A stretch of 53,844 nt of DNA from contig DATHSY010000073.1 of the NCBI GenBank assembly GCA_035463715.1, positions 1 to 53,844 on the forward strand. The letters run 5' to 3'. This DNA comes from Actinomycetota bacterium (GTDB lineage Bacteria; Actinomycetota; UBA4738; HRBIN12). The translations under genes and the position numbers were made by a program. The notes under the pieces were generated by a model that did not search any database, was not told where the DNA came from, and worked only from the letters and a program-made list of their open reading frames with translations. Of this stretch, positions 26,240 to 43,320 are shown one piece after another. The stretch's first letter is position 1, and each line of letters starts with the position of its first letter.

Positions 26240-26327
26240 CGGCCGTACCCCTGCGGCGTGTCCACGCGACGATACGCGCCGTCGCGGCCGAGTCACACTC
26301 GGATGACGTCGTTCCGCGACGTTACGT

Positions 26328-26348: not shown

Positions 26349-26355
26349 GGCAACC

Positions 26356-27695: not shown

Positions 27696-27814
27696 CCGCA
27701 GCGACACTACTCGACGAGGGCCGCGGTGTATAGCGTCGCTGAGCGGCCAGACGCTCGCCCGGAACGGCCGGTGTCTAGCCAAGGTCCCGGCATCTGTGTA
27801 GTGTCGCTGAACGG
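27696..27814. promoter_or_regulatory. divergent control region with three copies of a TAG(T/C)GTCGCTG motif
   Basis: CAGCGACACTAC (27699-27710) is the exact reverse complement of GTAGTGTCGCTG (27798-27809). A third copy, TAGCGTCGCTG, lies at 27731-27741. Each copy contains a TANNNT -10-like hexamer. Confidence 0.5.
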
Positions 27815-28710
27815 TGTTGGAGGGGACGCCTACCACGGTTGCCGTCGTCGGCACCGGCCGCATGGGCAGCGCGATGGCCGGGACGATCGGCCGAGCCGGC
27901 TTCGGGCTGGTGCTCTGGAACCGCGAGCCCTCGAAGTCGGAGCGCCTCGCCGCCGACCTGGGCGCGAGCATCGCGGCCTCGCCCGCCGAGGCCGCGTCGA
28001 AGGCCGACATGGTCCTGTCGAGCCTCGCCGACGACGCTGCCGTCGAGCACGTGTACATGGGCCCCGACGGCGTCGTGGAGGGCATCCCGCCGGGTGTCGT
28101 CGCCGTCGACACCAGCACCATCGATCCCCGCACGGTCGAGTCGGTCGGCGGTGCGGTCGAGGCAGCCGGCGCGAGCTTCCTCGACTGCCCCGTCTCGGGC
28201 AGCGTGAGCGTCGTCGAGGCGGGCGCGCTCACGATCATGGCGGGCGGCGAGGCGAGCGTGATCGATCGCGTTCGTCCCGTGCTGGACGCGATGGCATCGC
28301 GCGTCGTGCACATCGGCGGCCGCGGCGCGGGGTCGGCGATGAAGCTCGCCGTGAACAACCTCGTGCATGGGCTCAACGTCGCCCTCTCGGAGGCGATCGT
28401 CCTGGCCGAACGCGCCGGCGTCCCACGGACCACGGCGTACGAGGTCTTCGCTAACGGTGCCGGTGGCGCGCCGTTCGTGAACTACAAACGCGAGTCGTTC
28501 GAGCATCCCGAGACGGCGCCCGTGGCCTTCAGCCTGGACCTGGTCGCGAAGGACTACGAGCTGATCCTCGGGCTCGGCGGGCGGGTCGGGGTGCCGATGG
28601 AGCAGGCGGCCGCGTCGCAGGAGATCGTCCGCCGCGCGATCGCGAACGGCTACGGCGACCGCGACCTGAGCGCGATCGCCGTGTTCCTGCGGGGAGGCGA
28701 CGTCGGATGA
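27814..28710 (+). CDS. NAD(P)-dependent 3-hydroxyisobutyrate/tartronate-semialdehyde reductase-family oxidoreductase
   Basis: Rossmann VAVVGTGRMGSAMA and the family core ...DCPVSGSV..., ...GRGAGSAMKLAVN... The GTG at 27814 (or TTG at 27817) has no RBS, so the transcript may be leaderless. Confidence 0.8.
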   Translation: MLEGTPTTVAVVGTGRMGSAMAGTIGRAGFGLVLWNREPSKSERLAADLGASIAASPAEAASKADMVLSSLADDAAVEHVYMGPDGVVEGIPPGVVAVDTSTIDPRTVESVGGAVEAAGASFLDCPVSGSVSVVEAGALTIMAGGEASVIDRVRPVLDAMASRVVHIGGRGAGSAMKLAVNNLVHGLNVALSEAIVLAERAGVPRTTAYEVFANGAGGAPFVNYKRESFEHPETAPVAFSLDLVAKDYELILGLGGRVGVPMEQAAASQEIVRRAIANGYGDRDLSAIAVFLRGGDVG

Positions 28711-29645
28711 CGCACATCGTGAAGCTGCACGCCGACCTCGACCTGCGGACGCCGCCCGAGTTCGAGGGTCGGTCCCGGGGATACGCGGGGGACGCGGTCG
28801 TCGACGAGGGCGGCGGGTCGGTCCAGATGGGGTTCCGGATCGCCCGGCTCGAGCCGGGCGGGCGGGTCGACGCCCACGTGCACTCGTTCGAGGAGTCGAT
28901 CTACGTGATCGACGGCAGCCTGACGGTGGACACGACGGAGGGGTCGTTCGAACTGACGGCCGGCGACTACGGGCTGCTGCCGGTCGGCATGACGCACGCG
29001 TTCCGCAACCCGTCGGACGAAGTCGTGGGGCTTGCCGAGATGAGGGCGCCGCTGCCGCGGGAGCGGTTCGGCTTCGACACGCAGTTCCCCGGACCGCTCG
29101 AGACGGGGGCGGTCGCCCGCCGGATCGACGTCCGCGATCCACGGAACCGGAATTTCGGGCACATCGACGCCGGGTCGATGGATCCCGCGCTGCAGACGCA
29201 GGACCGGCTCGCCGTCAGCGCCAGCATGCGGACCGCGCTCCTCGTCTACAGCGGGATCACCGTGAAGATGATGGTCGACTCGGATCTCGGCGCCGACCTG
29301 TCGACGATGTTCATGGTCCAGTACGAGCCGGGCGGGTTCGCCGGACCGCACGATCATCCGCTCGAGGAGACCTATCTGATCCTCGACGGTGAGGTCGAGG
29401 GGGTGTTCGACGGCAGGACCTACCCCCTGGGACCCGGCGACGTCGCGTGGGCGGGCGTGGGCTGCGTCCACGAGTTCCGCAACGAGGCCCCCGGGCGAGT
29501 GCGGTGGCTCGAGACGCAGGCGCCCCAGCCGCCGCCTCGGCATTCGTACCGCTTCGCACGTGACTGGAGCTACCTCGAGCAGGCGCTGGGACGAGAGGCG
29601 CAGGGGACGTTGGCCCCGGACGGACAAGGAGCACGCCATGGATGA
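28707..29645 (+). CDS. bicupin protein with two intact His/Glu metal motifs (dioxygenase, decarboxylase or aminohydrolase type unknown)
   Basis: ATGA overlap with the upstream gene. Cupin 1: AHVHSFEESIYVIDG...PVGMTHAFRN. Cupin 2: GPHDHPLEETYLILDG...GVGCVHEFRN. Confidence 0.8.
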   Translation: MTHIVKLHADLDLRTPPEFEGRSRGYAGDAVVDEGGGSVQMGFRIARLEPGGRVDAHVHSFEESIYVIDGSLTVDTTEGSFELTAGDYGLLPVGMTHAFRNPSDEVVGLAEMRAPLPRERFGFDTQFPGPLETGAVARRIDVRDPRNRNFGHIDAGSMDPALQTQDRLAVSASMRTALLVYSGITVKMMVDSDLGADLSTMFMVQYEPGGFAGPHDHPLEETYLILDGEVEGVFDGRTYPLGPGDVAWAGVGCVHEFRNEAPGRVRWLETQAPQPPPRHSYRFARDWSYLEQALGREAQGTLAPDGQGARHG

Positions 29646-30891
29646 GTTCCCGGTAGCGACGAGCCCGGCCCCCGGGGTCATGGGCGTCGACTGGGAGAAC
29701 CGGGTCGACTTCGAGCGGCTGCGTCAGTACCGGCTCGGCCGCGTGCGCAGGATGCTGGCCGAGTTCGACCTCGGCGCCGTGCTGTTATTCGAGACGTCGA
29801 ACATCCGGTACGCGACCGCGACGCAGATCGGCTACTGGGCGTTCAACAAGGGGGAACGCTGGGCGCTGATCACGCGGGAGGGACGGCCGCGCGTCTGGGA
29901 CTTCGGGTCGGCCGCGAAGGCGCACCGGCTCCAGCTGCCGCACCTGTACGACACGCGGAACTCGATCGGCGGCAACACCGGGCTGCAGGGCGCCATCTCA
30001 CCCGAGACGGGCCTGCACGCGCGCGCCGTGCGCGAGATCCAGGCCGCGCTCGAGGAGGACGGCGTCGGCGGGGAACGGCTGGGCGTCGACCTCGCCGAGA
30101 CGGCGGTGTTCCTCGCGCTGCAAGAGGCGGGCGTCACCGTGGTCGACGGCCAACAGGCGATGATGCGCGCGAGAGAGATCAAGAGCCCAGACGAGATCGT
30201 CCTGTTGACGCAGGCGTGTGCGATGGTCGACGGCGTCTACCAGGACATCTTCGAGATGCTGAAGCCCGGAGTCCGCGAGTCGGACGTGGTCGGAATGGCG
30301 CATGCGCGCCTGTTCGGGATGGGATCGGAGTTCGTCGAGGCGATCAACTCGATCGCCGGCGAGCGCTGCAGCCCGCATCCGCACGTCTTCAGCGACCGGA
30401 TCATCCGGCCGGGCGACCAGGCCTACTTCGACATCATCCACGTCTTCAACGGCTACCGAACGTGCTACTACCGCACGTTCGTCGTCGGGCGCGCGACGCA
30501 GGCGCAGCGCGACGCGTTCAAGCAGTCACGCGAGTGGATGGACGCCGCGATCGACGTCGTCCGCCCAGGCGCGACGACCGACCAGATCGCGAAGGTCTGG
30601 CCGAGGGCAGAGGAGTTCGGCTTCCAGGACGAGATGGACGCGTTCGGGCTGCAGTTCGGCCACGGCGTCGGCGTCGGCCTGCACGAGCGGCCGATCGTCA
30701 GCCGGCTGAACTCGCTCGAGACGCCCGTAGAGATCCAGGAGGGGATGCTGTTCGCCCTCGAGACGTACGCGCCTGCCGCGGACGGACGGTCGGCCGCCCG
30801 GATCGAGGAAGAGGTGGTCGTCACGGCCTACGGCTGCAAGGTCATCACGCTGTTCCCGTGCGAGGAGCTGATGGTGGCCAATGCCTACTGA
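29638..30891 (+). CDS. M24-family hydrolase (creatinase / Xaa-Pro / DoeA-DddP-like pita-bread fold)
   Basis: ATG at 29638 follows AAGGAG, with an 8-nt overlap on the upstream gene. FGHGVGVGLHERP, FALETYA and ARIEEEVVVT are M24 motifs. 417 aa. Confidence 0.8.
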   Translation: MDEFPVATSPAPGVMGVDWENRVDFERLRQYRLGRVRRMLAEFDLGAVLLFETSNIRYATATQIGYWAFNKGERWALITREGRPRVWDFGSAAKAHRLQLPHLYDTRNSIGGNTGLQGAISPETGLHARAVREIQAALEEDGVGGERLGVDLAETAVFLALQEAGVTVVDGQQAMMRAREIKSPDEIVLLTQACAMVDGVYQDIFEMLKPGVRESDVVGMAHARLFGMGSEFVEAINSIAGERCSPHPHVFSDRIIRPGDQAYFDIIHVFNGYRTCYYRTFVVGRATQAQRDAFKQSREWMDAAIDVVRPGATTDQIAKVWPRAEEFGFQDEMDAFGLQFGHGVGVGLHERPIVSRLNSLETPVEIQEGMLFALETYAPAADGRSAARIEEEVVVTAYGCKVITLFPCEELMVANAY

Positions 30892-31942
30892 CCCACGGTA
30901 CGACTACGCGCTCCGCGAACCGCGGCTGCCGCCGCCCGTCGACCACTCGCTCGCGGAGGCACCGATCGACCTCGACGTCCGGATCGAGATGTACCGGACA
31001 CTGACCCGGATCCGCGCGTTCGGCAAGCGGGCGCACGACCTGTTCCTGCAGAACCTCGTCAAGGGAACCACGCACCTCTCGCTCGGGATGGAGGCCGTCG
31101 CGGCCGGCTTCGGCGCGGCGATGCAGCCGCACGACTACTCGTTCGCGACCTACCGCGGGCACGGGCACTCGCTCGCGCGAGGGATGGACCCGGGCGCCGC
31201 GATGGCCGAGCTGCTCGGCCGGGAGAACGGGATCCTCGGCGGCAAGGGCGGGTCGATGCACCTGACCGACACGGGCAAGGGGATGATGGGGTCGTACGCC
31301 ATCATCGGCGCGCACCTGTGCATCGCCAACGGAGCCGCGTGGTCGGCGCAGATGCGCGGGACCGATCAGGTGGCGGTCGCGTTCTTCGGCGACGGAACGA
31401 CAAACATCGGCGCGTTCCACGAGGCGCTCAACTTCGCGGTCGTCTGGAACCTGCCGGTCGTCTTCGTCGGCGAGAACAACCTATACATGGAGTACACGCC
31501 GATCGACGTCGTGACCTCGATCGACCCGCCGGTGGCCGGTCGCGCCCCGGCGTACGGGCTGCCGCAGATCCTGGTCGACGGCAACGATCCCGACGCCGTG
31601 TACCTCGTGGCGCGCGAGGCGCTGGACAAGGCGCGCTCGGGCGGCGGACCGTCGCTGATCGAGGCGGTGACGTACCGCTCCGGAGGGCACTCGCGTGCCG
31701 ACCCCGGCAAGTACCGGCCCGCCGAGGAGGTCGGCGCGTGGGCCGAGCGTGACCCCGTACCGATGTACCGCGCACGCCTGATCTCGATCGGGGTCGATGA
31801 GCAGCGTCTGGAAGCGATCCAGGACGAGCTCGACGAGTCGATCGACTCGGCCACCCACGTCGCGATGATGGGCGCCGAGCCGGGCGAGGACGCACTCCTG
31901 TCGCAGGTCTACGCGGACGGAGGTTCCCGGTGGCGGAACTGA
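30881..31942 (+). CDS. thiamine-diphosphate-dependent 2-oxoacid/acetoin dehydrogenase E1 alpha subunit
   Basis: TPP motif region FFGDGTTNIGAFHEALNFAVVWNLPVVFVGENNLY, plus YRGHGHS. ATG at 30881, with an 11-nt overlap. Confidence 0.88.
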   Translation: MPTDPRYDYALREPRLPPPVDHSLAEAPIDLDVRIEMYRTLTRIRAFGKRAHDLFLQNLVKGTTHLSLGMEAVAAGFGAAMQPHDYSFATYRGHGHSLARGMDPGAAMAELLGRENGILGGKGGSMHLTDTGKGMMGSYAIIGAHLCIANGAAWSAQMRGTDQVAVAFFGDGTTNIGAFHEALNFAVVWNLPVVFVGENNLYMEYTPIDVVTSIDPPVAGRAPAYGLPQILVDGNDPDAVYLVAREALDKARSGGGPSLIEAVTYRSGGHSRADPGKYRPAEEVGAWAERDPVPMYRARLISIGVDEQRLEAIQDELDESIDSATHVAMMGAEPGEDALLSQVYADGGSRWRN

Positions 31943-32919
31943 CCTACCGCGACGCGATCGCGTACGGGATCGCGCAGGAGATGCGGCGGGAGCCGAGCCT
32001 GGTGATGCTCGGCGAGGACATCGGACCGGCGGGCGGCGTGTTCAAGACCACCGTCGGCCTGATCGACGAGTTCGGGCCCGAACGGGTCCGGGACACCCCG
32101 ATCTCGGAGCAGGCGATCCTCGGCGCCGCGATGGGCGCGGCGATGACGGGGATCCCGGTGATCGCCGAGGTCATGTTCTCCGACTTCCTCGCGGTCTGTT
32201 GGGACATCGTCGCGAACCAGATCGCGAAGAGCCGCTACATGACGAACGGGCAGGTGAGCTTCCCACTCGTGATCCGGACCGCGAACGGCGGCGGCGTCCG
32301 GTTCGGCGCGCAGCACAGCCAGAGCGTCGAGAACTGGGCGATGATGATCCCGGGCCTCAAGGTCGTCGCCCCCTCGACGCCCGCGGACGTGGTCGGCCTG
32401 ATGGCGGCGGCGATCCGCGATCCCGATCCCGTCGTCTTCTTCGAGCACAAGGGCCTGATGGGGACCAAGGGCGAGATCCCCGACGGCGAGATCGTCGACG
32501 AGCTCGGCACCGCTAAGGTCGTTCGCGAGGGCACCGACGTCACGATCGCGGCCCTCGCACTGATGGTGCCGCGAGCGCTCGAGGCGGCGACGCGGCTCGA
32601 GCGCGACGGGGTCTCCGCCGAGGTGATCGACGTCCGCTCGCTCGTGCCGCTCGACACCCGCGCGCTGCTCGCCTCGGTGGAGAAGACGGGCCGATTCTGC
32701 ACGGTCGAGGAGAACCCGCGGCTGTGCGGATGGGGCGCCGAGCTCGTGTCGATCTTGTCCGAGGAGGCTTTCTGGAACCTCGACGGACCGAGCATCCGGA
32801 TCACGACGCCGCACATCCCGTTGCCGGCGGCGGCGTCGCTCGAGGACCTCGCGATGCCCTCGGCCGACCGGATCTACGAGACGGTGCACAAGTCGCTCGA
32901 CGCCGGGAGCCGCGCGTGA
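31930..32919 (+). CDS. 2-oxoacid/acetoin dehydrogenase E1 beta subunit (transketolase-like)
   Basis: LTYRDAIAYGIAQEMRR...GEDIG..GGVFKTT.GL...FGPERV.DTPISE is the canonical E1-beta N-terminus. GTG at 31930, with a 13-nt overlap. Confidence 0.88.
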   Translation: MAELTYRDAIAYGIAQEMRREPSLVMLGEDIGPAGGVFKTTVGLIDEFGPERVRDTPISEQAILGAAMGAAMTGIPVIAEVMFSDFLAVCWDIVANQIAKSRYMTNGQVSFPLVIRTANGGGVRFGAQHSQSVENWAMMIPGLKVVAPSTPADVVGLMAAAIRDPDPVVFFEHKGLMGTKGEIPDGEIVDELGTAKVVREGTDVTIAALALMVPRALEAATRLERDGVSAEVIDVRSLVPLDTRALLASVEKTGRFCTVEENPRLCGWGAELVSILSEEAFWNLDGPSIRITTPHIPLPAAASLEDLAMPSADRIYETVHKSLDAGSRA

Positions 32920-34187
32920 CGACCGGGACCCTGCTCCGCGGCGGGTGCATCCTCACCCTCGGGACGAAGACCCAGAACCTCAAGCGGGGTGACGTCCTGA
33001 TCGAGGACGGCCGGATCGCCGAGGTCGGGACGTCGGTCCGCGGCCGCGACGCCGAGGTCGTGGACGCGACGGACGCGATCGTGATGCCGGGGTTCGTGGA
33101 CACGCACCGTCACGCGTGGACGTCGTTGTTCCGCAACGCCGGCGACATCGCCGAGGTGTCGCCCGAGGTGCTCGGCGAGCACTACCGGCCAGGGGACGTC
33201 TACGCGGCCACGCTGATCGGGCTCCTTGGCGCGATCGAAGCCGGCATCACGACCGTCGTGGACGTTCTCGATCTCCCGCTCCGCGACGGCTTCGCGGAGG
33301 CGGCGCTGCAGGCGCACGCCGATTCCGGCGTCCGGACCGTGTTCGCGTTCGCGGCCCGAGAGGCAGCCGGCGACATGGTCGATCGCTTGTCCGGCGCGGC
33401 CGGGCCGGGGACGACCTTCGCGCTGGTCTCGGACGGTTTCGGCGACGGATGGACCGGCGCACGCGATCGCGGGCTGAGGGTCTTCGTGCACGCGCGGCCG
33501 ACCTTGTCGGTCCGCGGCGATGTTGCGCGGGCGGCATCGGAGGGCCTGCTCTCGGGCGAGGTCACGCTCGTTCATCACACCGCCCTCGACGATTCGGACC
33601 TCGATGCGATCGCGGGGTCGGGCGCCTGTGTCTCCCTGACGCCGTCGAGCGAGATGGCCACGGGGTTCGGCTCGCCACCGATCCAGGAGCTGATCGACCG
33701 AGGGATCAAACCGGGGCTCGGGATCGATCGGGAAGGGATGGCGCCAGGCGACATGTTCGCCCAGATGCGCCAGACGATCTCGCTCCAGCACGCGACCGTG
33801 TTCGACCGCAAGCTTGCGGGCAAGGCGGGGCTCCCCCGGCTGATGACGACCCGCGACGTGATCCGGTTCGCGACCTCTGAGGGGGCACGCGTCGCAGGGG
33901 TGCGGGAGGTGACCGGATCGCTCGAGCCCGGGCTGCAGGCAGACATCATCGTGCTCCGGACAGACCGCCCGAACGTATGGCCGATCAACGACCCGATCGG
34001 TGCCGTCGTCTGGGGGATGGACACGTCGAACATCGACCACGTCTTCGTCGGCGGCCGCCCGGTGATGCGCAGCGGCGTGCTCGCGGCCGACGTTGCCCGC
34101 GCGCGCTCGCTGGCGACGGGCGCACGCGGACACGTGACGGCCGCGGCGGGGATCGTCGCCCGAGCCGTCACGGGAGCCACGAGGTGA
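32916..34187 (+). CDS. amidohydrolase-superfamily enzyme A (TIM-barrel metallohydrolase/deaminase type)
   Basis: The GTG at 32916 overlaps the E1-beta stop (GTGA). HxH motif in IVMPGFVDTHRHAW, and a late Asp in GLGIDREGMAPGD. Paralog of the C-terminal domain of 38182..40635. Confidence 0.8.
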   Translation: MTTGTLLRGGCILTLGTKTQNLKRGDVLIEDGRIAEVGTSVRGRDAEVVDATDAIVMPGFVDTHRHAWTSLFRNAGDIAEVSPEVLGEHYRPGDVYAATLIGLLGAIEAGITTVVDVLDLPLRDGFAEAALQAHADSGVRTVFAFAAREAAGDMVDRLSGAAGPGTTFALVSDGFGDGWTGARDRGLRVFVHARPTLSVRGDVARAASEGLLSGEVTLVHHTALDDSDLDAIAGSGACVSLTPSSEMATGFGSPPIQELIDRGIKPGLGIDREGMAPGDMFAQMRQTISLQHATVFDRKLAGKAGLPRLMTTRDVIRFATSEGARVAGVREVTGSLEPGLQADIIVLRTDRPNVWPINDPIGAVVWGMDTSNIDHVFVGGRPVMRSGVLAADVARARSLATGARGHVTAAAGIVARAVTGATR

Positions 34188-35248
34188 ACTCCCCTCGGCC
34201 TGCGTCGTCCGCGCTCACGGCCTTCGTCGTCGCCTCGCGCTACATGCCCGTCTACATCGCCCTCGTGCTGCTCGTCGTCGTCGCGTCGATCTGGGCGCCC
34301 GCGACGCTGCGAGGGCCGTCCTTGCGGGCGATCGCCCCCGTGGGAACGCTCCTCGCGATCGCGGCCCTCGGTCAGATGCTCGTCGTGATGACGGGCGGCA
34401 TCGATCTCAGCGTCCCCGGAAGCCTGACCCTCGCGGCCGTGATCACGGTCGGCGTGGGACACGGGGCCGACGATCGCGTCGGTCCCGCGATCGTCGTCGC
34501 GCTCGCGGCGGTGGCGCTCGTCGGCCTCGTGAACGGCATCCTGATCGGTGGCATCGGCCTGAACCCCTTGATCGTGACACTCGCCGTCGGACAGATCGCG
34601 AGCGGCATCGCGTTCCGCTACTACACGAGCGTCGCGATCCAGACGCCCGTGCCGAAGGGGCTCTCCGGATGGACCTCGACCCGTCTGCTCGGCGTCCCGC
34701 GCACGTTCTGGCTGGGCGTCGCGGTCACGGTGGTGCTGATCGTCCTGTTCCGCTTCACGACGGTCGGGCGCCGGTTCCAGGTCGTCGGCGCCAACCCGAC
34801 GGCGTCGTGGATCGCCGGGCTCCGGGTCAACCTCAATCGCGTCTCCGCCTACGTCGTCGCGGCCATGCTGTACGGCGGCACCGGCATCCTGATCGCCTCG
34901 TACCTGCGCACGATCAGCATCACGATCGGCGCGCCGTACCTCCTCGGCCCGATCGCCGCGGTGGTGATCGGGGGGGCCTCGCTGACCGGCGGACTCGCGA
35001 GCCCGCTGTCGACGTGGGCCGCGGCCTTCTTCCTGGCCGGCCTCAACCAGATGATGCGCGTCCTCGGTCTGCCGACCGCGCTGCAGTTCGTCGTGTTCGG
35101 CGTGGTGATCGTCGGGGGGATGTTGATCTCGGGAGACCGGATCATCAGGGCGGTCGAGCACGTGCTTCGGGAAGGCAAGCGACCGGAACCACGAGCCGGC
35201 CCCGTGGTCGCCGGCATCGGACCCGGTGAGGACGGGGGGGTGATCTAA
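34184..35248 (+). CDS. CUT2-type ABC transporter permease A
   Basis: The GTG at 34184 overlaps the upstream stop (GTGA). Multi-TM protein with TGGIDLSVPGSLTLAAV and VIGGASLTGGLASP motifs. 354 aa. Confidence 0.85.
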   Translation: MNSPRPASSALTAFVVASRYMPVYIALVLLVVVASIWAPATLRGPSLRAIAPVGTLLAIAALGQMLVVMTGGIDLSVPGSLTLAAVITVGVGHGADDRVGPAIVVALAAVALVGLVNGILIGGIGLNPLIVTLAVGQIASGIAFRYYTSVAIQTPVPKGLSGWTSTRLLGVPRTFWLGVAVTVVLIVLFRFTTVGRRFQVVGANPTASWIAGLRVNLNRVSAYVVAAMLYGGTGILIASYLRTISITIGAPYLLGPIAAVVIGGASLTGGLASPLSTWAAAFFLAGLNQMMRVLGLPTALQFVVFGVVIVGGMLISGDRIIRAVEHVLREGKRPEPRAGPVVAGIGPGEDGGVI

Positions 35249-35309
35249 CGGGCTTCGAGGGATCGGCGAGCGATCTGCACGGATGACGGTCGACGTAGGG
35301 GAGGGGACG

Positions 35310-36593
35310 ATGCACCGGATCAGGTTCGTGGTCATCTTCGCGGTGTTCGCCTTGGTGGCGGCAGCGTGCGGTGGGGACGATGGCGACACCGGCGGGAACG
35401 GCGGTACGGACGGCGGGAACGCGACGACCGGGTCCGGGCCTCTCGCGGAGTACGGCGAGAGCACGGACGCGGATCCGGCGCTGATCGAGAAGGCGATGGG
35501 GCCGGTCGGGGAGGTTCCCGACATCGTGCTGGCCGCGATCGCTCGCGCGGATCAGGATCTCGACCAGGCCACGGTCGACAAGGCCCTGGAGTGCTGGGCG
35601 GCCACGCAGTGCGATACGGGCACCGGCGGCGACATCGTCATGGGGTACGCGGACGGCGGCGGCCTGAACGTCTGGCGTCAGGTGACGAGGATGGAGGCGA
35701 TCCTGCAGGCGCTCACGTATCCCGAGATCGGCAAGATGATGTTCCGCGACGCCAAGTGGGACCCCGATCCGGCGGTCGCCGCAGCCGACATCCGGTTCCT
35801 GATCCAGGCGGGTGTCGACTTCATCATCGGCTACCCGGACCAGGGCACGAACATCGCCGATGCGATCCTCGAGGTCCAGGCGGCCGGCATCCCCTACTCC
35901 ACGTACTCGGCCGGCTGGGTCGGCTTGCCAGGACAGGAGGGCGCGCTGGTTCCCGGCGAGGATTACCTGACCGTCGTCGGCGAGGACCTCTGCGCGCTGG
36001 GCGATAGCTTCGCCGATGTGATCAACGACGGCGTCCGATCGGGCAGCGTCGGCGTGATGGGCGGCACACCGGGCAACGCGTTGTCGCTCGGTTGGCAGCA
36101 GTGCTTCATGGACGCGGTGGACGACTCGGTCGACACACTCGGTCCCGCGGACACGTACTGGTCGAACGACGTCGCCCTCGAGGTCGTGAACGGGTGGCTC
36201 TCGACGAACCCGGACATCAAGGGGTACGCGTACGAGTACGCGGACGGCCTCAACACGGCGTTGCAGGCCTACGACGAGCTCGGCGTGCCGGTGCGCGATC
36301 TGACGGTCGCCCTGCGCACGGACGAGCAGACGCTGTTCTGCGACTGGGCCGAACGGGACGCGCCGAACTACGACATCTGGTACTCGGCCGGCGGCAACTT
36401 CCAGTCGCGTGTGGCGGTGACCGCTTCGATGATGTACTTGAAGGATGCCGACATCTCGGGTGAGATCGTCGTCCCGCACGTGATGCGTCAGGTCACGGAG
36501 GACGACTGCAACCCCGACCGCGTGACGCCGACGGTGTCGGGGACGTCGCTCGTGCCGGACGAGGTGCTGGCGCTGATGTATCCGAGCGGATGA
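35310..36593 (+). CDS. ABC transporter substrate-binding lipoprotein (unknown ligand)
   Basis: ATG at 35310 follows GGGGAGGGG. MHRIRFVVIFAVFALVAAACGG is a lipobox, followed by a Gly/Asp/Thr linker. 427 aa, unusually long for a CUT2 binding protein. Confidence 0.8.
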   Translation: MHRIRFVVIFAVFALVAAACGGDDGDTGGNGGTDGGNATTGSGPLAEYGESTDADPALIEKAMGPVGEVPDIVLAAIARADQDLDQATVDKALECWAATQCDTGTGGDIVMGYADGGGLNVWRQVTRMEAILQALTYPEIGKMMFRDAKWDPDPAVAAADIRFLIQAGVDFIIGYPDQGTNIADAILEVQAAGIPYSTYSAGWVGLPGQEGALVPGEDYLTVVGEDLCALGDSFADVINDGVRSGSVGVMGGTPGNALSLGWQQCFMDAVDDSVDTLGPADTYWSNDVALEVVNGWLSTNPDIKGYAYEYADGLNTALQAYDELGVPVRDLTVALRTDEQTLFCDWAERDAPNYDIWYSAGGNFQSRVAVTASMMYLKDADISGEIVVPHVMRQVTEDDCNPDRVTPTVSGTSLVPDEVLALMYPSG

Positions 36594-38185
36594 GCAGGAG
36601 CGACCCCGAGGAAGGGTCGGTAGGCGGAGAGGTCGTCCTCGAGCTGACCGGGGTGTCCCGTCAGTTCGGCGCGGTGCGCGCGCTGACCGACGTCAGCTTC
36701 GACTGCCGCGCCGGCGAGGTCCACGCCATCGTCGGCGAGAACGGCTCGGGCAAATCGACCCTCCTCGGGATCGCGAGCGGCTTCGTCGACCCCGATCGCG
36801 GCACGGTCACGATCGGCGGCAGGCGATTACGCCGGGATTCCCCGGCCGAGGCCAGGAAGCTGGGCCTGGCGATGGCGTACCAGGACACCTCGTTGATCCT
36901 GGCGCAGCCGGTGAAGAACAACCTCTACCTCGCCGCCCCGCCGGAGGAGCGACCGCCGTTCTGGCGCCGGAAGAAGTGGGCGCGGCGCGTCCTCGCCGGG
37001 TTCGACCTCGACATCGAGCTCTTCCCCGACATGCCGGCGGGGGCGTTGACGCTCGCGGACCGTCAGCTGTTCGAGGTCGCCAAGGCGCTGGTCACGGAAC
37101 CGCGCGTGCTCCTCCTCGACGAGCCGACCACCGCGCTCGGCCCGCACGAGGTCGAAGCGCTCCACCGCACGCTGTCAGCATGCCGCGATCGTGGCGTCGG
37201 CGTTGTGTACGTGAGCCACCGGCTCCCGGAGGTGCTCGAGGTCGCGGATCGCATCACGGTCCTGCGCGACGGCCGGAGCCAGGGGACGTTCGACGCGCGC
37301 GACGTCACGGAGCATCAGCTCGTCGACCTGATCGTCGGGCGCGCGTTCGAGGCGGCGTTCCCGCCTCCCGCGCCGGGTGAGGGCGAGCGACGCGACCGGC
37401 TCGTCGTGGACGGGCTCCAGGGGCAGGCGTTCGGACCCGTGACCTTCACGCTCGTGAGCGGCGAGATCGTCGGCGTCGCGGGTGCCGAGGGCAACGGCCA
37501 GCCGCAGCTGTTCGACTGCCTCGCCGGACGACAGCCGCCGCGCGCGGGGCGCGTCGCATGCGACGGCAGGGAGCTGATGCTGATCTCCACGCACGAGGCC
37601 GTCCGTGCCGGGATCATGCTCTTGCCCGGGGACCGGAGGCAGGAAGCGCTGATGCCCGTGCTCGGCGTGCGGGTCAACTCGACGATCCAGTCGCTCCGAC
37701 GGTTCGCGACGATGGGGTTCCTGCGGCGGAGGAGGGAGCGCCGGCGGGTGCGAGAGCTCGTCGAACGGCTCGAGATCAAGACTCCGTCGCTCGAGCAGCC
37801 CGTGGGGTTCCTGTCCGGCGGCAACCAGCAGAAGGTCGCGGTCTCCCGCACGTTCCTGCGCGAACCGGCGGTGATCCTCGCGTACGAGCCGACGCAAGGC
37901 GTCGACGTCGGTTCCCGGTTCGATATCTACGCCGCGCTCCGCTCGCGGACCGACACCGGGACGGCCATGCTCGTCAAGTCGAGCGATCCCCTCGAGCTGG
38001 CCGGTCTGTGCGACCGGGTCCTCGTGATGTCGCGGGGTCAGATCGTCGAGGAGATCCCGGGCGACGAGCTCGACGAGTTCCGGATCGTCGAGGCGATCGT
38101 GCGAGGCCCCGGGATGTCACGGGCGGGCCGCTCCCCACTCGGCGTCGCGATGCCGAAGGCTCCCACCCAGCGGAGGGACGTGTGA
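36590..38185 (+). CDS. ABC transporter ATP-binding protein, duplicated nucleotide-binding domains
   Basis: ATGA overlap with the upstream gene. NBD1 has GENGSGKST and LLLDEPTTAL. NBD2 has GAEGNGQPQL (degenerate Walker A), LSGGNQQK and ILAYEPTQGVD. Confidence 0.88.
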   Translation: MSRSDPEEGSVGGEVVLELTGVSRQFGAVRALTDVSFDCRAGEVHAIVGENGSGKSTLLGIASGFVDPDRGTVTIGGRRLRRDSPAEARKLGLAMAYQDTSLILAQPVKNNLYLAAPPEERPPFWRRKKWARRVLAGFDLDIELFPDMPAGALTLADRQLFEVAKALVTEPRVLLLDEPTTALGPHEVEALHRTLSACRDRGVGVVYVSHRLPEVLEVADRITVLRDGRSQGTFDARDVTEHQLVDLIVGRAFEAAFPPPAPGEGERRDRLVVDGLQGQAFGPVTFTLVSGEIVGVAGAEGNGQPQLFDCLAGRQPPRAGRVACDGRELMLISTHEAVRAGIMLLPGDRRQEALMPVLGVRVNSTIQSLRRFATMGFLRRRRERRRVRELVERLEIKTPSLEQPVGFLSGGNQQKVAVSRTFLREPAVILAYEPTQGVDVGSRFDIYAALRSRTDTGTAMLVKSSDPLELAGLCDRVLVMSRGQIVEEIPGDELDEFRIVEAIVRGPGMSRAGRSPLGVAMPKAPTQRRDV

Positions 38186-40635
38186 GCACGCGCGTCGACA
38201 CCGCACGGATCGCGGTCCGCAAGGTCCTCCGCGATGCGCGCGACAAGAACAAGTGGCGGAAGATCGTGCGGTTCCGGCTCTGGATGCCGGTCGTCCTCCA
38301 ACTGCTCCTGATCGTCGGGGTCGCGTGGTACACGACGACGCGCTTCCCCGGCTTCGTCAACACCGCGAACGTCACGAACACGCTGATCCTGGCGGCACCG
38401 CTCGCGATGGTCGCGATCGGTCAGACCCATGCGCTGCTGATCGGAGGCCTCGACCTGTCGGTCGGTGCGATGGTGACGTTCGGCGTCGTCGTCGCCTCGT
38501 TCCTGATCGGGCCGGAGTCGACGTCGTCGCACGTCCTGTTGGGTGTGGGCGCGATCCTCGGGTGCGGCGTGGCGCTCGGCCTGGTCAACGCCGGCCTCGT
38601 CGTCGGCCTCAAGATCCCGTCGATCATCGCAACGCTCGCGACGCTCAGCATCCTGAACGGCATCTCGCTCACGCTCCGCGGGACGCCCGGCGGGATCATC
38701 GACCGCGACTTCACGTCGTTGCTCCGGACGAGCATCGGGCCGGTGCCCGTGATCTTCATCGTCGTCCTGCTCGCCGCCGGCGCGCTCGACTACTGGCTGC
38801 ATGCGACGGGCTCCGGCCTGCAGCTGCGGTCGACCGGGTTCGACGAGCAGTCGGCGAAGCGGAGCGGCGTTCGGACCAAGTGGGTCCGCGCGCGCGCCTT
38901 CGTGCTCTCCTCGGTGTTCGCCGCCGTCGGCGCGTTCTTCGTGATGACGCGCTCGGGCATCGGCAACGCGCAGATCGGCGACGCGTACGCGCTCAGCAGC
39001 ATCACGGCGGCGGTGCTGGGCGGTGCCGCCCTGTCGGGCGGGCGGGCGACGTTCCTCGGGGCGCTCGTCGCATCGGTCCTTCTCGCGCTCATCATCAGCG
39101 CACTGCCGTTCCTCGGGCTGGGCGCCGAGCACGGGCTCATCATCATCGGCATCCTCGTCCTCCTCGGGATCGTGCTGTTCCAGGTCGGGGACCTGAAGGA
39201 GCTGGTCAAGAGGAACTACAAGCGGGCGCGGCGGGTCGTGATCGGGAGCCGGCCGCCGAAGACGGCCACGATCCCGGATCTGTATCCGGAGGAGCCGAAC
39301 TTCGGTGTGGCACCCACCGGCAGGACGCTGATCAAGGGCGGAACGATCCTCAGCCTGGATCCGAGGGTGGGTAACTTCCTGACCGGAGATGTCCTGATCG
39401 ACGGCGACCGGATCATCGACGTTCGCCCGGGGCTGCAGGTCGACGGCGCGGATGTGATCGACGCTGGCGGGATGATCGTGATGCCGGGGTTCGTCGACAC
39501 GCACCGGCACATCTGGGAGGGCCTGCTTCGGAACATCGGGACGGACGTGCCGCTCGAGGGCCGCTCCAGCTACATCTCATACGTCCTTCACAAGCTCGCG
39601 CCGGCGTACCGGCCCGAGGACGCGTACCTCGGCAACCTGATCTCGGCGCTGGGCGCCATCGACGCCGGCATCACGACGCTGCTCGACTGGTCCCACATCC
39701 AGGGGTCTCCCGCACACACGGACGCCGTGATCCAGGCCCTGGAAGACTCGGGTCTGCGGGCGGTCTTCGCGTACGGGTTCCCATGGTGGGGCAAGTGGGA
39801 GGAGCGCCAGCCAAGCTGGTTCGTCCGGGCGGCGAGCGAGCATTTCTCGACGAGGGACCAGAAGCTGACGCTCGCGCTGGCCGCTCCCGGTCCGGAGTTC
39901 ACCGATTTCGAGGTCTCGCGCGACCACTGGAAGCTCGCGCGCGAGACCGGCGCGCGGATCACGACCCACGTCGGCGTCGGGACCTACGGCAAGGACGGCA
40001 AGGTCCAGGAGATGGGCGAGGCGGGACTGCTCGGGGCCGACACGACGTACATCCACTGCACGACGCTGAACGACACGGAGATCCAGATGATCGTCGACAC
40101 CGGCGGCACGGTGTCCCTCGCCTCGCCGGTCGAGATGATGATGGGTCACGGCATGCCGCCGATCCAGAAGTTCCTGGACCGGGGGCTGCGTCCGAGCCTG
40201 AGCGTCGACGTCGAGACGAACGTGCCGGGCGACATGTTCAATCAGATGCGCTCGGTGCTCGCGCTCCAGCGGGCGAACGCGACCGCGGAGGGCAAGGCTC
40301 CGCTGACGGCGTCGGAGGTCCTGGCCTGCGCGACGATCGACGGTGCGAAGGCGAACGGGCTCGAGGCGACGATCGGAACGCTGACGCCGGGCAAGCAGGC
40401 CGACGTCATCGTGCTGCGTACGGACCGCATCAACGTCACGCCGCTCAACGACCCCTCCACGGCGGTCGTCACCGGGATGGACACCGGCAACGTCGATACG
40501 GTCCTGATCGCCGGACGGGTGATGAAGCGTCACGGCGAGCTGCTCCACGTCGACTGGCCGGCCGTGAAGCGGATGGTCGCCGAGTCACGCGATCACGTGC
40601 TCGCCAGATCCGGCTTCAAGCCCCCATCGATCTGA
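38182..40635 (+). CDS. in-frame fusion of CUT2 ABC permease B (N-terminal ~340 aa) with amidohydrolase B (C-terminal ~440 aa)
   Basis: The GTG at 38182 overlaps the ATPase stop (GTGA), and the frame stays open for 817 aa. Permease motifs are LIGGLDLSVGAMVTF and VLGGAALSGGRATF. A linker ...KRNYKRARRVVIGSRPPKTATIPDLYPEEPNFG follows. The amidohydrolase part has IVMPGFVDTHRHIW, ITTHVGVG, TYIHCTTL and SLSVDVETNVPGD. Confidence 0.8.
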   Translation: MSTRVDTARIAVRKVLRDARDKNKWRKIVRFRLWMPVVLQLLLIVGVAWYTTTRFPGFVNTANVTNTLILAAPLAMVAIGQTHALLIGGLDLSVGAMVTFGVVVASFLIGPESTSSHVLLGVGAILGCGVALGLVNAGLVVGLKIPSIIATLATLSILNGISLTLRGTPGGIIDRDFTSLLRTSIGPVPVIFIVVLLAAGALDYWLHATGSGLQLRSTGFDEQSAKRSGVRTKWVRARAFVLSSVFAAVGAFFVMTRSGIGNAQIGDAYALSSITAAVLGGAALSGGRATFLGALVASVLLALIISALPFLGLGAEHGLIIIGILVLLGIVLFQVGDLKELVKRNYKRARRVVIGSRPPKTATIPDLYPEEPNFGVAPTGRTLIKGGTILSLDPRVGNFLTGDVLIDGDRIIDVRPGLQVDGADVIDAGGMIVMPGFVDTHRHIWEGLLRNIGTDVPLEGRSSYISYVLHKLAPAYRPEDAYLGNLISALGAIDAGITTLLDWSHIQGSPAHTDAVIQALEDSGLRAVFAYGFPWWGKWEERQPSWFVRAASEHFSTRDQKLTLALAAPGPEFTDFEVSRDHWKLARETGARITTHVGVGTYGKDGKVQEMGEAGLLGADTTYIHCTTLNDTEIQMIVDTGGTVSLASPVEMMMGHGMPPIQKFLDRGLRPSLSVDVETNVPGDMFNQMRSVLALQRANATAEGKAPLTASEVLACATIDGAKANGLEATIGTLTPGKQADVIVLRTDRINVTPLNDPSTAVVTGMDTGNVDTVLIAGRVMKRHGELLHVDWPAVKRMVAESRDHVLARSGFKPPSI

Positions 40636-40912
40636 TCGAACCACCTGCGACGGCCGGCAGCAGCGACACCGTGTCGCCCTCCTTGACCGGCGTCTCGAGC
40701 GAGCCGAGGTAGCGCACGTCCTCGTCGTTCACGTAGACGTTGATGAACCGGTGCAGCGCGCCCTCATCGGAGACGACGTTCTTCGTGATGCCCGGGTAGC
40801 GGGACTCGAGGTCCTTCAGGAGCTCGCGAAGCGTGGACCCGTCGGCGTCGACGACGGGCTCGCCGCCGGCATGCTTGCGCAGGATCTGGGGCAGCTTGAC
40901 CTTGACGGACAT
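40616..40912 (-). CDS. cysO: MoaD/ThiS-family sulfur carrier protein (CysO-like) with a 7-aa extension beyond the GG terminus
   Basis: ATG at 40910-40912 follows AAGGAGAG. MSVKVKLPQILRKHAGG...HRFINVYVNDEDVRYLG...GDTVSLLPAVAGG closely resembles mycobacterial CysO and is then followed by SIRSMGA-stop. The last 20 nt overlap the convergent fusion gene. Confidence 0.8.
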   Translation of the reverse strand: MSVKVKLPQILRKHAGGEPVVDADGSTLRELLKDLESRYPGITKNVVSDEGALHRFINVYVNDEDVRYLGSLETPVKEGDTVSLLPAVAGGSIRSMGA

Positions 40913-40929
40913 CTCGGCTCGTCTCTCCT

Positions 40930-41751
40930 TCAGTTCGTCGTCGGCGTGATGCCGCAGAACGCGTCGTAGTCGATCAGCTCGGTTACGGTCGGCTCCTTGC
41001 CGCACACGGGGCAGTCGGCGTCCCACCGCACCTTCACGGTCGTGAAGTCCATCTCGAGGGCGTCGAAGATCAGCAGGCGCCCGATCAGCGGCTCGCCCAT
41101 CCCGGTGATCAGCTTGATCGCCTCGGTGGCCTGGATCGACCCGACGATCCCCGGCAGGACGCCGAACACGCCGCCCTCCGCGCACGAAGGAACCGTCCCG
41201 GGCGGCGGCGGCTGCGGGAACAGGCATCGGTAGCACGGCGCTTCCTGGCCCGGCATGAACACCGTGGCCTGCCCGTCGAACTGGTAGATCGAGCCGTACA
41301 CGAGGGGCTTGCCGAGGAACTGCGTCGCGTCGTTCACCAGGTAGCGCACGGGGAAGTTGTCGGTGCCGTCGACGATCACGTCCCACGGCTCCATGATCTC
41401 GAACGCGTTCTGCGAGGACAGGATCGTGTCGTACGGCACGACCTCGATCGTCGGGTTGAGCGCGCGCAGGTGATCGGCGGCGCTCTCGACCTTCGGGCGG
41501 CCGACGTCCGCGGTCGAATGGAGGATCTGGCGTTGCAGGTTGGATTCATCCACCGTGTCGAAGTCGAGGATCCCCAGCGTCCCGACGCCCGCCGCCGCGA
41601 GGTACATGGAGACCGGTGAGCCGAGGCCGCCGGCGCCGATCACGAGCACCTTGGAGTCGAGGAGCCTGCGCTGCCCCTGCCCGCCGATCCCGGGCAGGAT
41701 GATGTGGCGCGCGTAGCGCCGAACCTGCTCCTCGGTGAACGCGAAGCTCAC
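40930..41751 (-). CDS. MoeB/ThiF-type adenylyltransferase (E1-like), no rhodanese domain
   Basis: The GTG at 41749-41751 overlaps the mec stop (GTGA). YARHIILPGIGGQGQRRL, VIGAGGLGSP, two CxxC pairs (CYRC, CPVC) and SCAEGGV. 273 aa. Confidence 0.88.
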   Translation of the reverse strand: MSFAFTEEQVRRYARHIILPGIGGQGQRRLLDSKVLVIGAGGLGSPVSMYLAAAGVGTLGILDFDTVDESNLQRQILHSTADVGRPKVESAADHLRALNPTIEVVPYDTILSSQNAFEIMEPWDVIVDGTDNFPVRYLVNDATQFLGKPLVYGSIYQFDGQATVFMPGQEAPCYRCLFPQPPPPGTVPSCAEGGVFGVLPGIVGSIQATEAIKLITGMGEPLIGRLLIFDALEMDFTTVKVRWDADCPVCGKEPTVTELIDYDAFCGITPTTN

Positions 41752-42194
41752 GAGATCCTCAGCTCCTCCTCGGCGACCTCGCCGTCGACGATCCGGAACG
41801 CGCGCAGCACCGGGTGCTCGCGCTCCTCGAGCGACAGCAACAGGTACCGGATGTCGGGGTAGAACGGCTGCACCCACCCCGCCTGGCGCCGGTCGGTCTC
41901 GGACGGGTACGCCTCCGAGTGGGTGTGGGAGTGGTAGATCGCCCACAGCTCCAGACCCTCGTCCTCGATCCGCTGCGTGACGTCGAGCTGCTCCTTGGGG
42001 TCCAGCCGGTATGAGACGGGGCTCGCGTCGGCGTTCCGCATCACGAACACGCGCACGGGACGGCCCTGGTGCGCGGCGATCAGGCCGCAGCACTCGTTCG
42101 GGAACTCGCCCAGGCCGTGCCGTACGACCTCCTCGAACAGGGCGGCGTCGAACGCCACCGGGTCGATCGTCGATTCGGCCACGGGTTCAGGCAT
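41748..42194 (-). CDS. mec: Mec-type JAMM/MPN+ metalloprotease
   Basis: JAMM motif HSHTHSEAYPSETD plus the upstream ECCG glutamate. ATG at 42192-42194; a TTG at 42206 is also in frame. Confidence 0.85.
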   Translation of the reverse strand: MPEPVAESTIDPVAFDAALFEEVVRHGLGEFPNECCGLIAAHQGRPVRVFVMRNADASPVSYRLDPKEQLDVTQRIEDEGLELWAIYHSHTHSEAYPSETDRRQAGWVQPFYPDIRYLLLSLEEREHPVLRAFRIVDGEVAEEELRIS

Positions 42195-42211
42195 ATGCAG
42201 GTGCAAAACTC

Positions 42212-42227
42212 TACCAGCGCGCTGGTA
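42212..42227 (-). promoter_or_regulatory. perfect 16-bp palindrome TACCAGCGCGCTGGTA between selD and mec (operator or terminator-like hairpin)
   Basis: On the minus strand it is followed by GAGTTTTGC (short T-tract). It lies 18 nt upstream of the mec ATG. Confidence 0.4.
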
Positions 42228-42229
42228 TT

Positions 42230-42249
42230 CCCTGAACCGCCGTTCAGGG
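42230..42249 (-). other. 8-bp stem hairpin spanning the selD stop codon
   Basis: CCCTGAAC-cgcc-GTTCAGGG; the selD TGA (42244-42246) lies in the 3' arm. Confidence 0.35.
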
Positions 42250-43320
42250 ACCCGTGGGCCCGTCCGCGAGTCCGTCCGGCAGGCGGCCGCGGACCCGGAT
42301 CAGGCCGGGCTCACCGGCCACGGTCCGTCCCAGCCGGACCGCCCTCACCCCCCGCCCGGCGAGCGCCTGGGCCAGCCTGTCCCCGTCCGTCGCGACGATC
42401 AGCAGCCCGCCCGAGGTCTGCGCGTCGGCGAGCACCAGCTGCTCGGGATGCGTGAGGTCGCCGAAGTCGGTGTGGGGCGCTACGTACGCATGGTTCCGCT
42501 TGGTGCCCCCCGCGACGACGTCGGACCGCGCGAGGTCGAGCACGCCGGGCAGCAGCGGGATGGCGGCCGCGTCGAGGTCGGCCGCCACGCCGGACGCAAA
42601 GAGCATCCGGTGCAGATGGCCGAGCAGCCCGAACCCCGTGACGTCGGTCGCGGCCCCGACGCCGGCCTCGAGCATCGCAGCGGCCGCGGTGTCGTTCAGC
42701 GTCGTCATGACGTCCACGGCGACGGCGAGCTGCTCGTCGGTCGCAACGCCGCGTTTGACGGCGGTGGAGATCATCCCGAGCCCGATCGGCTTCGTGAGAT
42801 ACAGGTCCCTGTCCGGTGGAGCCGTCGAGTTGCGAACGACGCGGCCGGCTTCGGCGAGCCCGAGCGCCACCATCCCGTATTTCGGCTCGGGATCGGTGAT
42901 CGAATGTCCGCCCGCGACGGCAACGCCGGCCTTCGCCGCGACGTCGATCCCTCCCTGGAGCACCTGCCCGAGGAGCTCGATCGGCAGGTCGTCGACCGGC
43001 CAGTTCACGACGTTGAGCGCGAGGAACGGCGTCCCGCCCATCGCGTAGACGTCCGACAGCGCGTTCGTCGCCGCGATCCGCCCCCAGTCGTACGCGTCGT
43101 CGACGATCGGCGTGAAGAAGTCGAGGGTCGCGATCAGCGCACGACCGTCGGGCAGGGCGTACACGGCCGCGTCGTCGCCCGTATCGTTGCCCACGAGCAG
43201 GTCGCGGCTCGCCTGGGGCAGCGACAGCGTGCCGAGCAACTCCGTGAGTTGCTCGGGGCCGAGCTTGCAGCCACACCCGGCGCCGTGGCTGAAGCTGGTG
43301 AGTCGCCGCTCTTCCCCCAC
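42244..43320 (-). CDS. selD: selenide, water dikinase (selenophosphate synthetase), Cys-type
   Basis: N-terminus RLTSFSHGAGCGCKLGPEQL matches the SelD catalytic Cys/Lys loop. PurM-like fold motifs GNDTGDDAAV and AGGHSI. GTG start at 43318-43320. Confidence 0.88.
   Translation of the reverse strand: MGEERRLTSFSHGAGCGCKLGPEQLTELLGTLSLPQASRDLLVGNDTGDDAAVYALPDGRALIATLDFFTPIVDDAYDWGRIAATNALSDVYAMGGTPFLALNVVNWPVDDLPIELLGQVLQGGIDVAAKAGVAVAGGHSITDPEPKYGMVALGLAEAGRVVRNSTAPPDRDLYLTKPIGLGMISTAVKRGVATDEQLAVAVDVMTTLNDTAAAAMLEAGVGAATDVTGFGLLGHLHRMLFASGVAADLDAAAIPLLPGVLDLARSDVVAGGTKRNHAYVAPHTDFGDLTHPEQLVLADAQTSGGLLIVATDGDRLAQALAGRGVRAVRLGRTVAGEPGLIRVRGRLPDGLADGPTGP

Follow-up and report, generated by a model that had tools for sequence, protein, structure and literature searches.

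A permease-amidohydrolase fusion conserved within a CUT2-type ABC importer operon: an enzyme naturally joined to an importer by which it is probably fed

Can an enzyme be built into the ABC importer that supplies it? This question is raised by one long reading frame at 38182..40635 of a 53,844-nucleotide stretch of DNA from an Actinomycetota bacterium (the whole stretch is called the window here; positions 1 to 53,844 of the forward strand of contig DATHSY010000073.1, GenBank assembly GCA_035463715.1). An earlier reading of the DNA without database searches (the sequence-only reading) had taken this frame for a CUT2-type importer permease joined to an amidohydrolase, and had attributed the join to a recent loss of a stop codon that left a relic ribosome-binding site and GTG start at the junction. 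The answer that we favour, with moderate confidence, is that the window encodes a CUT2 importer with a heterodimeric pair of permeases, one of which holds a competent amidohydrolase on the cytoplasmic side, where this enzyme would act on the compound taken up. The gene and its parts are as follows.

38182..40635, + strand: fusion gene, 817-residue permease-amidohydrolase (open reading frame list, translation, Pfam)
38182..38271, + strand: basic N-terminal tail, predicted cytoplasmic, residues 1-30, with 12 Lys and Arg in residues 1-33 (alignment, charge count)
38272..39192, + strand: permease domain, residues 31-337, BPD_transp_2, ten predicted transmembrane helices (Pfam, NCBIfam, model)
39193..39258, + strand: linker A, residues 338-359, LKELVKRNYKRARRVVIGSRPP, conserved and basic, with a ratio of non-synonymous to synonymous differences (pN/pS) of 0.22 (alignment, pN/pS, model)
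39259..39321, + strand: linker B, residues 360-380, variable in sequence and fixed in length, pN/pS 0.48 (alignment, pN/pS)
39288..39294, + strand: GGAGGAG, coding for Pro-Glu-Glu, not conserved in orthologues (sequence, orthologue comparison)
39307..39309, + strand: in-frame GTG, Val376 (codon 376), where free-standing relatives start (sequence, alignment)
39322..40632, + strand: amidohydrolase domain, residues 381-817, PRK08204/NF006056 subfamily (Pfam, NCBIfam, alignments)

The open reading frame list shows a single frame at 38182..40635 that crosses the junction without a stop codon and translates into 817 residues; its GTG start overlaps the stop codon of the preceding ATPase gene (GTGA), with GGAGG located 5 nt upstream of the start. 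The permease half matched the Pfam profile BPD_transp_2 (PF02653) at residues 64-328 (E 3.7e-25, 89 bits against a cut-off of 26.8). The enzyme half matched Amidohydro_1 at residues 432-780 over profile positions 1-344 of 345 (E 1.6e-32), and residues 381-811 matched the NCBIfam model NF006056/PRK08204 over positions 4-445 of 449 (511.8 bits against a cut-off of 391). The GC content of third codon positions (GC3) in the fusion frame was 0.86-1.0 in each 150-nt block of 38182-40581, junction included, and because it is continuous across the junction a hidden frameshift there is not indicated. The single 817-residue frame with its CUT2-type permease and complete amidohydrolase domain, as described in the sequence-only reading, was thus recovered by independent means; the motifs quoted there (LIGGLDLSVG, GGAALSGG, HRH, THVGVG, YIHCT and SVDVETN) were all found in the fusion and are mostly invariant in its relatives, and the roughly ten hydrophobic segments counted there correspond to ten predicted helices.

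A search for permease-amidohydrolase fusions, which that reading had proposed, was made against 5.8 billion clustered proteins and returned at least 120 distinct 90%-identity clusters, with identities to the query of 79-85% and, for nearly all, lengths of 811-841 residues; PF02653 plus PF01979/PF07969 were present in each. The window's own cluster held 13 member sequences (the same 817-residue protein or one at least 90% identical) from JGI, ENA and NCBI assemblies, including GenBank HSL15232.1, which is annotated as "amidohydrolase family protein". A scan of one genome per GTDB species gave 384 stretches coding for a relative, of which the best 80 loci were analysed; together with the contig of P0121, the most divergent fused protein, these make up the 81 related loci referred to below, and the codon, linker and Shine-Dalgarno (SD) counts were made on 82 genomic sequences. 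The best 80 loci span nearly the whole query (from residues 1-11 to residues 806-817) at 72-85% identity, and come from soil metagenome-assembled genomes (MAGs); four of these bear the label Acidobacteriota, and the others are labelled Actinomycetes, Actinomycetota, Acidimicrobiia or Gaiellales. In all 81 related loci one uninterrupted frame spans both the permease part and the amidohydrolase part. In a HMMER search of 1.84 billion 50%-identity representatives, P0121 (822 residues, 73% identity) was the sole full-length fusion in the top 150 matches, the remainder being fragments or free amidohydrolases of 420-540 residues at no more than 56% identity. Since only one full-length fused representative was recovered at 50% identity and the frame is intact in all 81 loci, the fusion is, as judged from these comparisons, a single clade that arose once and stays intact in at least 80 species.

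Two side observations concern the loci themselves. The Acidobacteriota labels (L041, L044, L045 and L080) and the Gaiellales label (L005) may reflect either mislabelled bins or horizontal transfer of the operon. One related MAG locus (L063:7795-13425) carries two tandem copies of the fusion, of which the downstream copy is intact and the upstream copy, like most genes there, is broken into several frames, probably through long-read assembly errors.

This spread bears directly on the explanation that two adjacent genes were joined by accident, whether by a stop codon lost recently or by an indel introduced in assembly or sequencing. The enzyme domain does start exactly where free-standing relatives start, and a few database entries (P0123, P0133 and P0269) are short and permease-only. 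However, the frame is uninterrupted in 81 of 81 loci, the 13 near-identical members come from independent assemblies, GC3 is continuous, the linker is fixed in length and under selection (see below), and the short entries are probably frameshifted copies of the fusion. It is implausible that assemblies made with different technologies (JGI, ENA, NCBI and Logan) would all share one artefact. We consider an accidental join extremely improbable, and the fusion is, on the comparative evidence, old rather than a recent accident or a sequencing error. A sequencing error at the junction and an absence of the fusion from all related genomes had been named in the sequence-only reading as outcomes that would undo it; neither was observed, given the GC3 profile, the proteins at least 90% identical in three sets of assemblies and the 80 species-representative genomes that keep the fusion. 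Its dating of the event did not survive, as a recent stop-codon loss is at odds with a frame intact in every locus at 72-85% identity and with a linker of fixed length whose first half is under purifying selection.

The short representatives end in Arg/Ala/Ser-rich tails that look out of frame, and were read as frameshifted on this basis. In P0123 the tail (…STRAARTSAWLLRARR) resembles what the linker DNA of orthologues encodes in the +1 frame (…STRRARTSAS…, …PTSAW…), with a best ungapped match of 13 of 29 residues. All three entries are therefore probably frameshifted copies of the fusion (assembly errors or pseudogenes) and would represent no ancestral two-gene state; their interpretation as separate genes predating the fusion was rejected for the same out-of-frame tails. 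A true split orthologue, with separate permease and amidohydrolase genes, was not found among the searched relatives, so that the two-gene loci for which the sequence-only reading had suggested looking did not turn up. The closest free amidohydrolases show 52-56% identity to the fused domain. The nearest of these (P0124, 56% identity) lies in a locus with the order GntR-amidohydrolase-glyoxalase-Peripla_BP_4-ATPase on a contig that ends before any permease; it stands beside a binding protein and an ATPase, and the linkage of the enzyme to CUT2 systems therefore predates the fusion. The other nearest free amidohydrolases examined were not adjacent to transporters. One of them, P0128 (L085:8001-11778, 52% identical), has genes for an HIBADH-like reductase and a bicupin as neighbours and no transporter nearby; this same pair opens the operon of the window (27814-29645). 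The amidohydrolase, the HIBADH-like reductase and the bicupin may form a conserved pathway core.

A fused reading frame could nonetheless yield separate polypeptides, either through an internal start near codon 376 or through proteolysis in linker B, with the fusion serving co-expression only. The sequence of the junction gives this idea some footing: GGAGGAG at 39288-39294 lies 12 nt upstream of the in-frame GTG at 39307, both located where the sequence-only reading had placed them, and the genes of the operon use GGAGG-like SD sequences at a spacing of 5-13 nt. The alignment of this GTG with the start of the free-standing paralogue at 32916..34187 (AH1), also proposed there, was confirmed, as residue 5 of AH1 aligns with residue 7 after the GTG and AH1 begins two residues past the GTG position. 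The alignments of free relatives begin at their residues 2-12, opposite fusion residues 378-383, so that the junction GTG sits, according to these alignments, where the ancestral enzyme gene would have started.

Orthologues do not preserve this arrangement as a translation start, which tells against both the relic proposed earlier and internal initiation. The codon aligned with the GTG is GTG in 40 of the 82 sequences, GTC in 25, GTT in 4 and ATG in 2, the rest being GAG (3), GCC/GCG (4) and ACG, ATC, ATT and AGC (1 each). It is start-capable (GTG or ATG) in only 42, and the alternation of GTG with GTC and GTT is consistent with synonymous drift of a Val codon. A start codon with an upstream SD-like motif was found at this position in 3 of the 82, the window itself counted. 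Within aligned residues 350-385, an in-frame start with an SD-like motif occurred in 12 of 82, whereas equally sized windows along the fusion gene gave a background mean of 13.6. The window's frame holds 44 in-frame start codons, 2 of them with an SD-like motif, and orthologues average 3.2 such sites, about as many as chance would place in each. The GGAGGAG at the junction is thus probably a chance SD-like string specific to the window; internal initiation in this one genome is physically possible, without comparative support. Separate products would also entail no selection against a stop codon between the domains, yet none has appeared in the 81 loci.

The linker provides a further argument. 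Its first half (residues 341-360, consensus KRNYKRARRLVIGSRPPK) has a mean identity of 0.88 over 118 fused proteins, whereas its second half (residues 361-380) is variable, with a mean identity of 0.55. The distance from anchor R344 to anchor G387 is 44 residues in 81 of the 82 genomic sequences. Uncorrected pN/pS, calculated by comparing each orthologue with the window sequence, was 0.39 for the membrane domain, 0.22 for linker A, 0.48 for linker B and 0.20 for the enzyme domain. Given the fixed length and the low pN/pS of the first half, the linker would be a constrained element and not a decaying intergenic remnant. Its first half is, by these ratios, under purifying selection, and the fixed length argues for a structural tether and so disfavours separate products. 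Linker A was modelled by AlphaFold2 as a continuation of transmembrane helix 10 at low confidence; linker B, being variable, is probably flexible, a property that separation by proteolysis could exploit. Taken together, we think it unlikely that the two halves exist only as separate polypeptides.

The enzyme domain belongs to the amidohydrolase superfamily (mononuclear, subtype III-like), with metal ligands of the HxH, His, His and Asp type on strands 1, 5, 6 and 8 (H441/H443, H596, H625 and D676) and, by profile coverage of Amidohydro_1 and NF006056, a full-length (beta/alpha)8 barrel with beta-sandwich. These ligands are kept across the fusion, AH1 and 128 free relatives (in 110-130 of 130 aligned sequences, H596 being the lowest at 110), and all five are invariant within the fusion clade. 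The best solved relatives were 3hpa_A and 7ww2_A (8-oxoguanine deaminase / AtzB-like) and 4v1x_A (atrazine chlorohydrolase), with E from 1e-24 to 1e-26. The catalytic Glu that COG0402-type deaminases carry in HxxE after strand 5 is missing; most of the subfamily, AH1 and the majority of the 128 free relatives included, has a variable, non-acidic residue there. All deaminase equivalog models of NCBIfam score far below their cut-offs on the fused domain. By its sequence it looks like an active metalloenzyme, but not like a COG0402 deaminase of the canonical kind. Because the HxxE glutamate is missing, "MTA/SAH deaminase" and "cytosine/adenosine deaminase-related", as used in databases, are probably wrong in detail. 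To our knowledge, no member of the PRK08204/NF006056 subfamily ('hypothetical protein') has been characterised. No other protein of the cluster is as well conserved as the enzyme domain (78-87% identity): the permease half stands at 63-83% and AH1 orthologues at 48-68%.

These observations were also weighed against the possibility that the domain is a ligand-sensing regulatory module which, by analogy with the C-terminal domains of MalK, MetN and ModC, would gate the transporter by the cytoplasmic level of substrate or product. Extra cytoplasmic domains described in ABC importers are mainly regulatory (PMC3971661), although the known ones sit on the ATPase and none on a permease. Catalysis could be left to AH1, the free paralogue in the operon, but it is the fused domain that is the more strongly conserved of the two (78-87% against 48-68%). 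The lack of the HxxE glutamate of related deaminases would fit a sensor, except that it is a trait of the whole subfamily and not of the fused copy alone, and all five metal/catalytic ligands are strictly conserved in the fused domain as they are in free relatives. A sensor role is, in our estimation, improbable.

The N-terminal half found its best NCBIfam permease matches in AraH, LsrC, YjfF and RbsC, all below cut-offs, and no relative of solved structure was found for it. An AlphaFold2 model, built from a shallow 48-sequence alignment of the fusion clade and used for helix counting only, has a predicted local distance difference test score (pLDDT) of roughly 55-88 over most of the membrane part, where it shows ten long helices, the last reaching residue 353 in linker A. 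On this ten-helix model, 28 Lys and Arg fall in loops assigned to the inside and 4 in those outside; the inside residues include 12 in the N-terminal tail, 5 in the basic loop between helices 6 and 7 (residues 209-234) and 9 in the C-terminal linker. The region between helices 6 and 7 is where type II importers have the coupling helices that touch the ATPase (PMC3971661), and as four helices follow this loop here the C-terminus would be on the same side. Both termini of the fusion, and hence the enzyme domain, are predicted to be cytoplasmic on the basis of this charge distribution, which agrees with the C-terminal location that the sequence-only reading had wanted confirmed by topology prediction. 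Within the N-terminal tail, DKNKWRKI (residues 21-28; 38242-38265) is near-invariant, mean identity over residues 21-40 being 0.96; this motif may serve to contact the ATPase or the tethered enzyme.

The fusion closes a tightly packed operon on the + strand (27814-40635), the other genes of which are listed here.

27814-28710, + strand: HIBADH-like reductase (family profile matches)
28707-29645, + strand: bicupin (family profile matches)
29389-30891 (open reading frame), + strand: M24/creatinase-like hydrolase, start uncertain (family profile matches)
30881-31942, + strand: thiamine pyrophosphate (TPP)-dependent E1 alpha (family profile matches)
31930-32919, + strand: TPP-dependent E1 beta (family profile matches)
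32916..34187, + strand: free-standing amidohydrolase paralogue AH1, 423 residues (Pfam, alignment)
34184..35248, + strand: permease 1, unfused, BPD_transp_2, 27% identical to the fused permease (Pfam, alignment)
35283..36593, + strand: substrate-binding protein, Peripla_BP_4 (Pfam PF13407, 57.9 bits against a cut-off of 35.1)
36590..38185, + strand: ABC ATPase with two fused nucleotide-binding domains (NBDs), RbsA/AraG-like, 531 residues (Pfam, NCBIfam)

The transporter is of the CUT2 type in each of its parts, having BPD_transp_2 permeases, a single two-NBD ATPase (two ABC_tran stretches, aligning end to end with AraG, XylG and RbsA) and a Peripla_BP_4 (cluster B) binding protein. The binding protein carries a lipoprotein-type signal (…FALVAAAC), and its true start is possibly the ATG at 35310. 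AH1 is 40% identical to the fused enzyme domain and has the same metal ligands. The likely GTG start of permease 1 at 34184 overlaps the stop codon of AH1 (GTGA). Such GTGA overlaps occur at 34184-34187 (AH1/permease 1) and 38182-38185 (ATPase/fusion), which suggests translational coupling along the transporter core. The order AH1, permease, binding protein, ATPase and fusion is collinear in every relative with enough flanking sequence, and the M24/E1/bicupin module is always near the transporter, be it upstream in the same orientation, upstream and inverted, or downstream.

Clues to the substrate were sought in the same region. None of the NCBIfam substrate equivalog models for the permeases and the binding protein reaches its cut-off, so the substrate would not be among the known sugars. 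An Rfam scan of the whole window gave no riboswitch or other RNA hinting at a substrate, and a scan for promoters and terminators gave nothing above expectation. Ureide/purine-type catabolism (bicupin, tartronate-semialdehyde-reductase-like gene and amidohydrolases) and creatinine/creatine-type catabolism (M24 creatinase-like enzyme) were considered and not adopted, as no equivalog reached its cut-off for either.

Two neighbouring gene sets lie outside the operon. Convergent with the fusion, on the - strand at 40616-42299, a ThiS/MoaD-like small protein, in which Gly-Gly is followed by seven residues (…AVAGGSIRSMGA), is succeeded by a ThiF-family E1-like enzyme (supported by Pfam) and a JAMM/MPN-like open reading frame. 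The trio resembles a sulfur-carrier set of the CysO/SAMP type in which the tail can be cleaved off, the Pfam basis being for the ThiF domain only. Upstream of the operon, a 567-residue open reading frame with DUF5122 beta-propeller repeats (24938-26641, - strand) adjoins a pyridoxal phosphate-dependent enzyme (23936-24868) and an Asp/Glu/hydantoin racemase (23105-23932).

The mechanism that we propose draws these parts together. The complex would consist of the lipoprotein binding protein, the tandem-NBD ATPase and two different 10-helix permeases, one of which carries a C-terminal cytoplasmic mononuclear-metal amidohydrolase of the PRK08204 subfamily on the fixed 44-residue linker. The enzyme would thereby be held at the inner face of the transporter, at one copy per complex, and would most likely perform an early hydrolytic step on an imported, probably nitrogen-containing compound. 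The expected outcome is metabolic trapping at a fixed stoichiometry, possibly with short-range channelling; the remaining steps would fall to AH1 and to the linked genes for the M24 enzyme, the bicupin, the reductase and E1. The tether is read as genuine because the frame is intact in 81 loci, the linker length is fixed and the ligands are conserved; we infer a kinetic role for the tether and an action of the enzyme on the transported substrate.

Several points weigh against this interpretation. The fused domain has HVGV at residues 596-599 (39967-39978) where 3hpa has HLAE, and so lacks the HxxE glutamate of related deaminases. In this genome GGAGGAG-N12-GTG is present at the junction, and proteolytic separation after synthesis is to be counted as a possibility. 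The AlphaFold2 model of the fusion is poor (pLDDT 50, predicted template modelling score 0.40), and among relatives of the binding protein there is no solved structure that would supply a substrate clue. A stronger version, which we regard as quite doubtful, is an ATP-driven import-and-hydrolyse machine with direct hand-over, that is, hydrolytic group translocation within the ABC superfamily. In that case the amidohydrolase, possibly in a pair with AH1, would have its active site docked where the permease dimer opens to the cytoplasm, and the substrate would never be free there, an arrangement perhaps evolved for a toxic or leak-prone compound.

If the enzyme is tethered as we favour, this is probably a natural case of an enzyme attached to the importer that feeds it. 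Transport metabolons, in which a transporter and the first enzyme of a pathway act as a unit, have so far been argued mostly from weak non-covalent interactions; the fusion is an evolutionarily fixed 1:1 covalent tether of permease and hydrolase with a linker of fixed length in at least 80 species, and offers a defined construct for asking whether tethering gives channelling or trapping. It also ties the uncharacterised PRK08204 subfamily to one particular uptake system with its gene cluster, and thereby narrows down where its substrate is to be sought. The fused proteins are already in public databases, as "amidohydrolase family protein" or under names such as MTA/SAH deaminase, which hide the transporter half and probably misname the enzyme. 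We know of no described case of an ABC importer permease fused to a hydrolase, and nothing relevant was found in the open-access literature on permease-amidohydrolase fusions, PRK08204 or ABC importer metabolons, so that the remark in the sequence-only reading that this is not a described CUT2 architecture stands for that literature. The components are ordinary members of known families (CUT2 importer, amidohydrolase superfamily); their covalent combination is new to the literature found.

Compared with CUT2 importers such as RbsABC, AraFGH, LsrACDB and YtfQRT-YjfF, the system has the same Peripla_BP_4 binding protein, two-NBD ATPase of about 500 residues and BPD_transp_2 permeases of about ten helices (one or two in those systems), and its heterodimeric permease pair resembles LsrCD and YtfT/YjfF. 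Unlike them, one permease adds a 44-residue linker and a 437-residue C-terminal enzyme, and has a conserved basic N-terminal tail of 30 residues. The HxH, His, His and Asp ligands are those of COG0402-like amidohydrolases (8-oxoguanine deaminase 3HPA/7WW2, the triazine hydrolases AtzA/TrzN and MTA/SAH deaminase); the enzyme here differs from 8-oxoguanine deaminase 3hpa in having HVGV instead of HLAE, and from the group in being covalently membrane-anchored, as judged from its sequence. Among ABC importers, OpuA and GlnPQ have substrate-binding domains fused to the transmembrane domain, and MalK, MetN and ModC have C-terminal regulatory domains on the NBD; a review of additions to ABC importers lists only regulatory ATPase domains, permease-fused binding domains and extra membrane domains (PMC3971661). 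A soluble domain covalently added to a core subunit is common to these and to the fusion, but their domains bind substrate for delivery or trans-inhibition, whereas the domain here is a complete metalloenzyme fold on the cytoplasmic end of a permease. Couplings of transporters to enzymes include group translocation by the phosphotransferase system (PTS), vectorial acylation by FATP/FadD, trapping by PnuC-NadR, SulP-carbonic anhydrase fusions and LplT-Aas, all of which are secondary carriers or PTS. With these the fusion shares, as a concept, the coupling of the first metabolic step to uptake.

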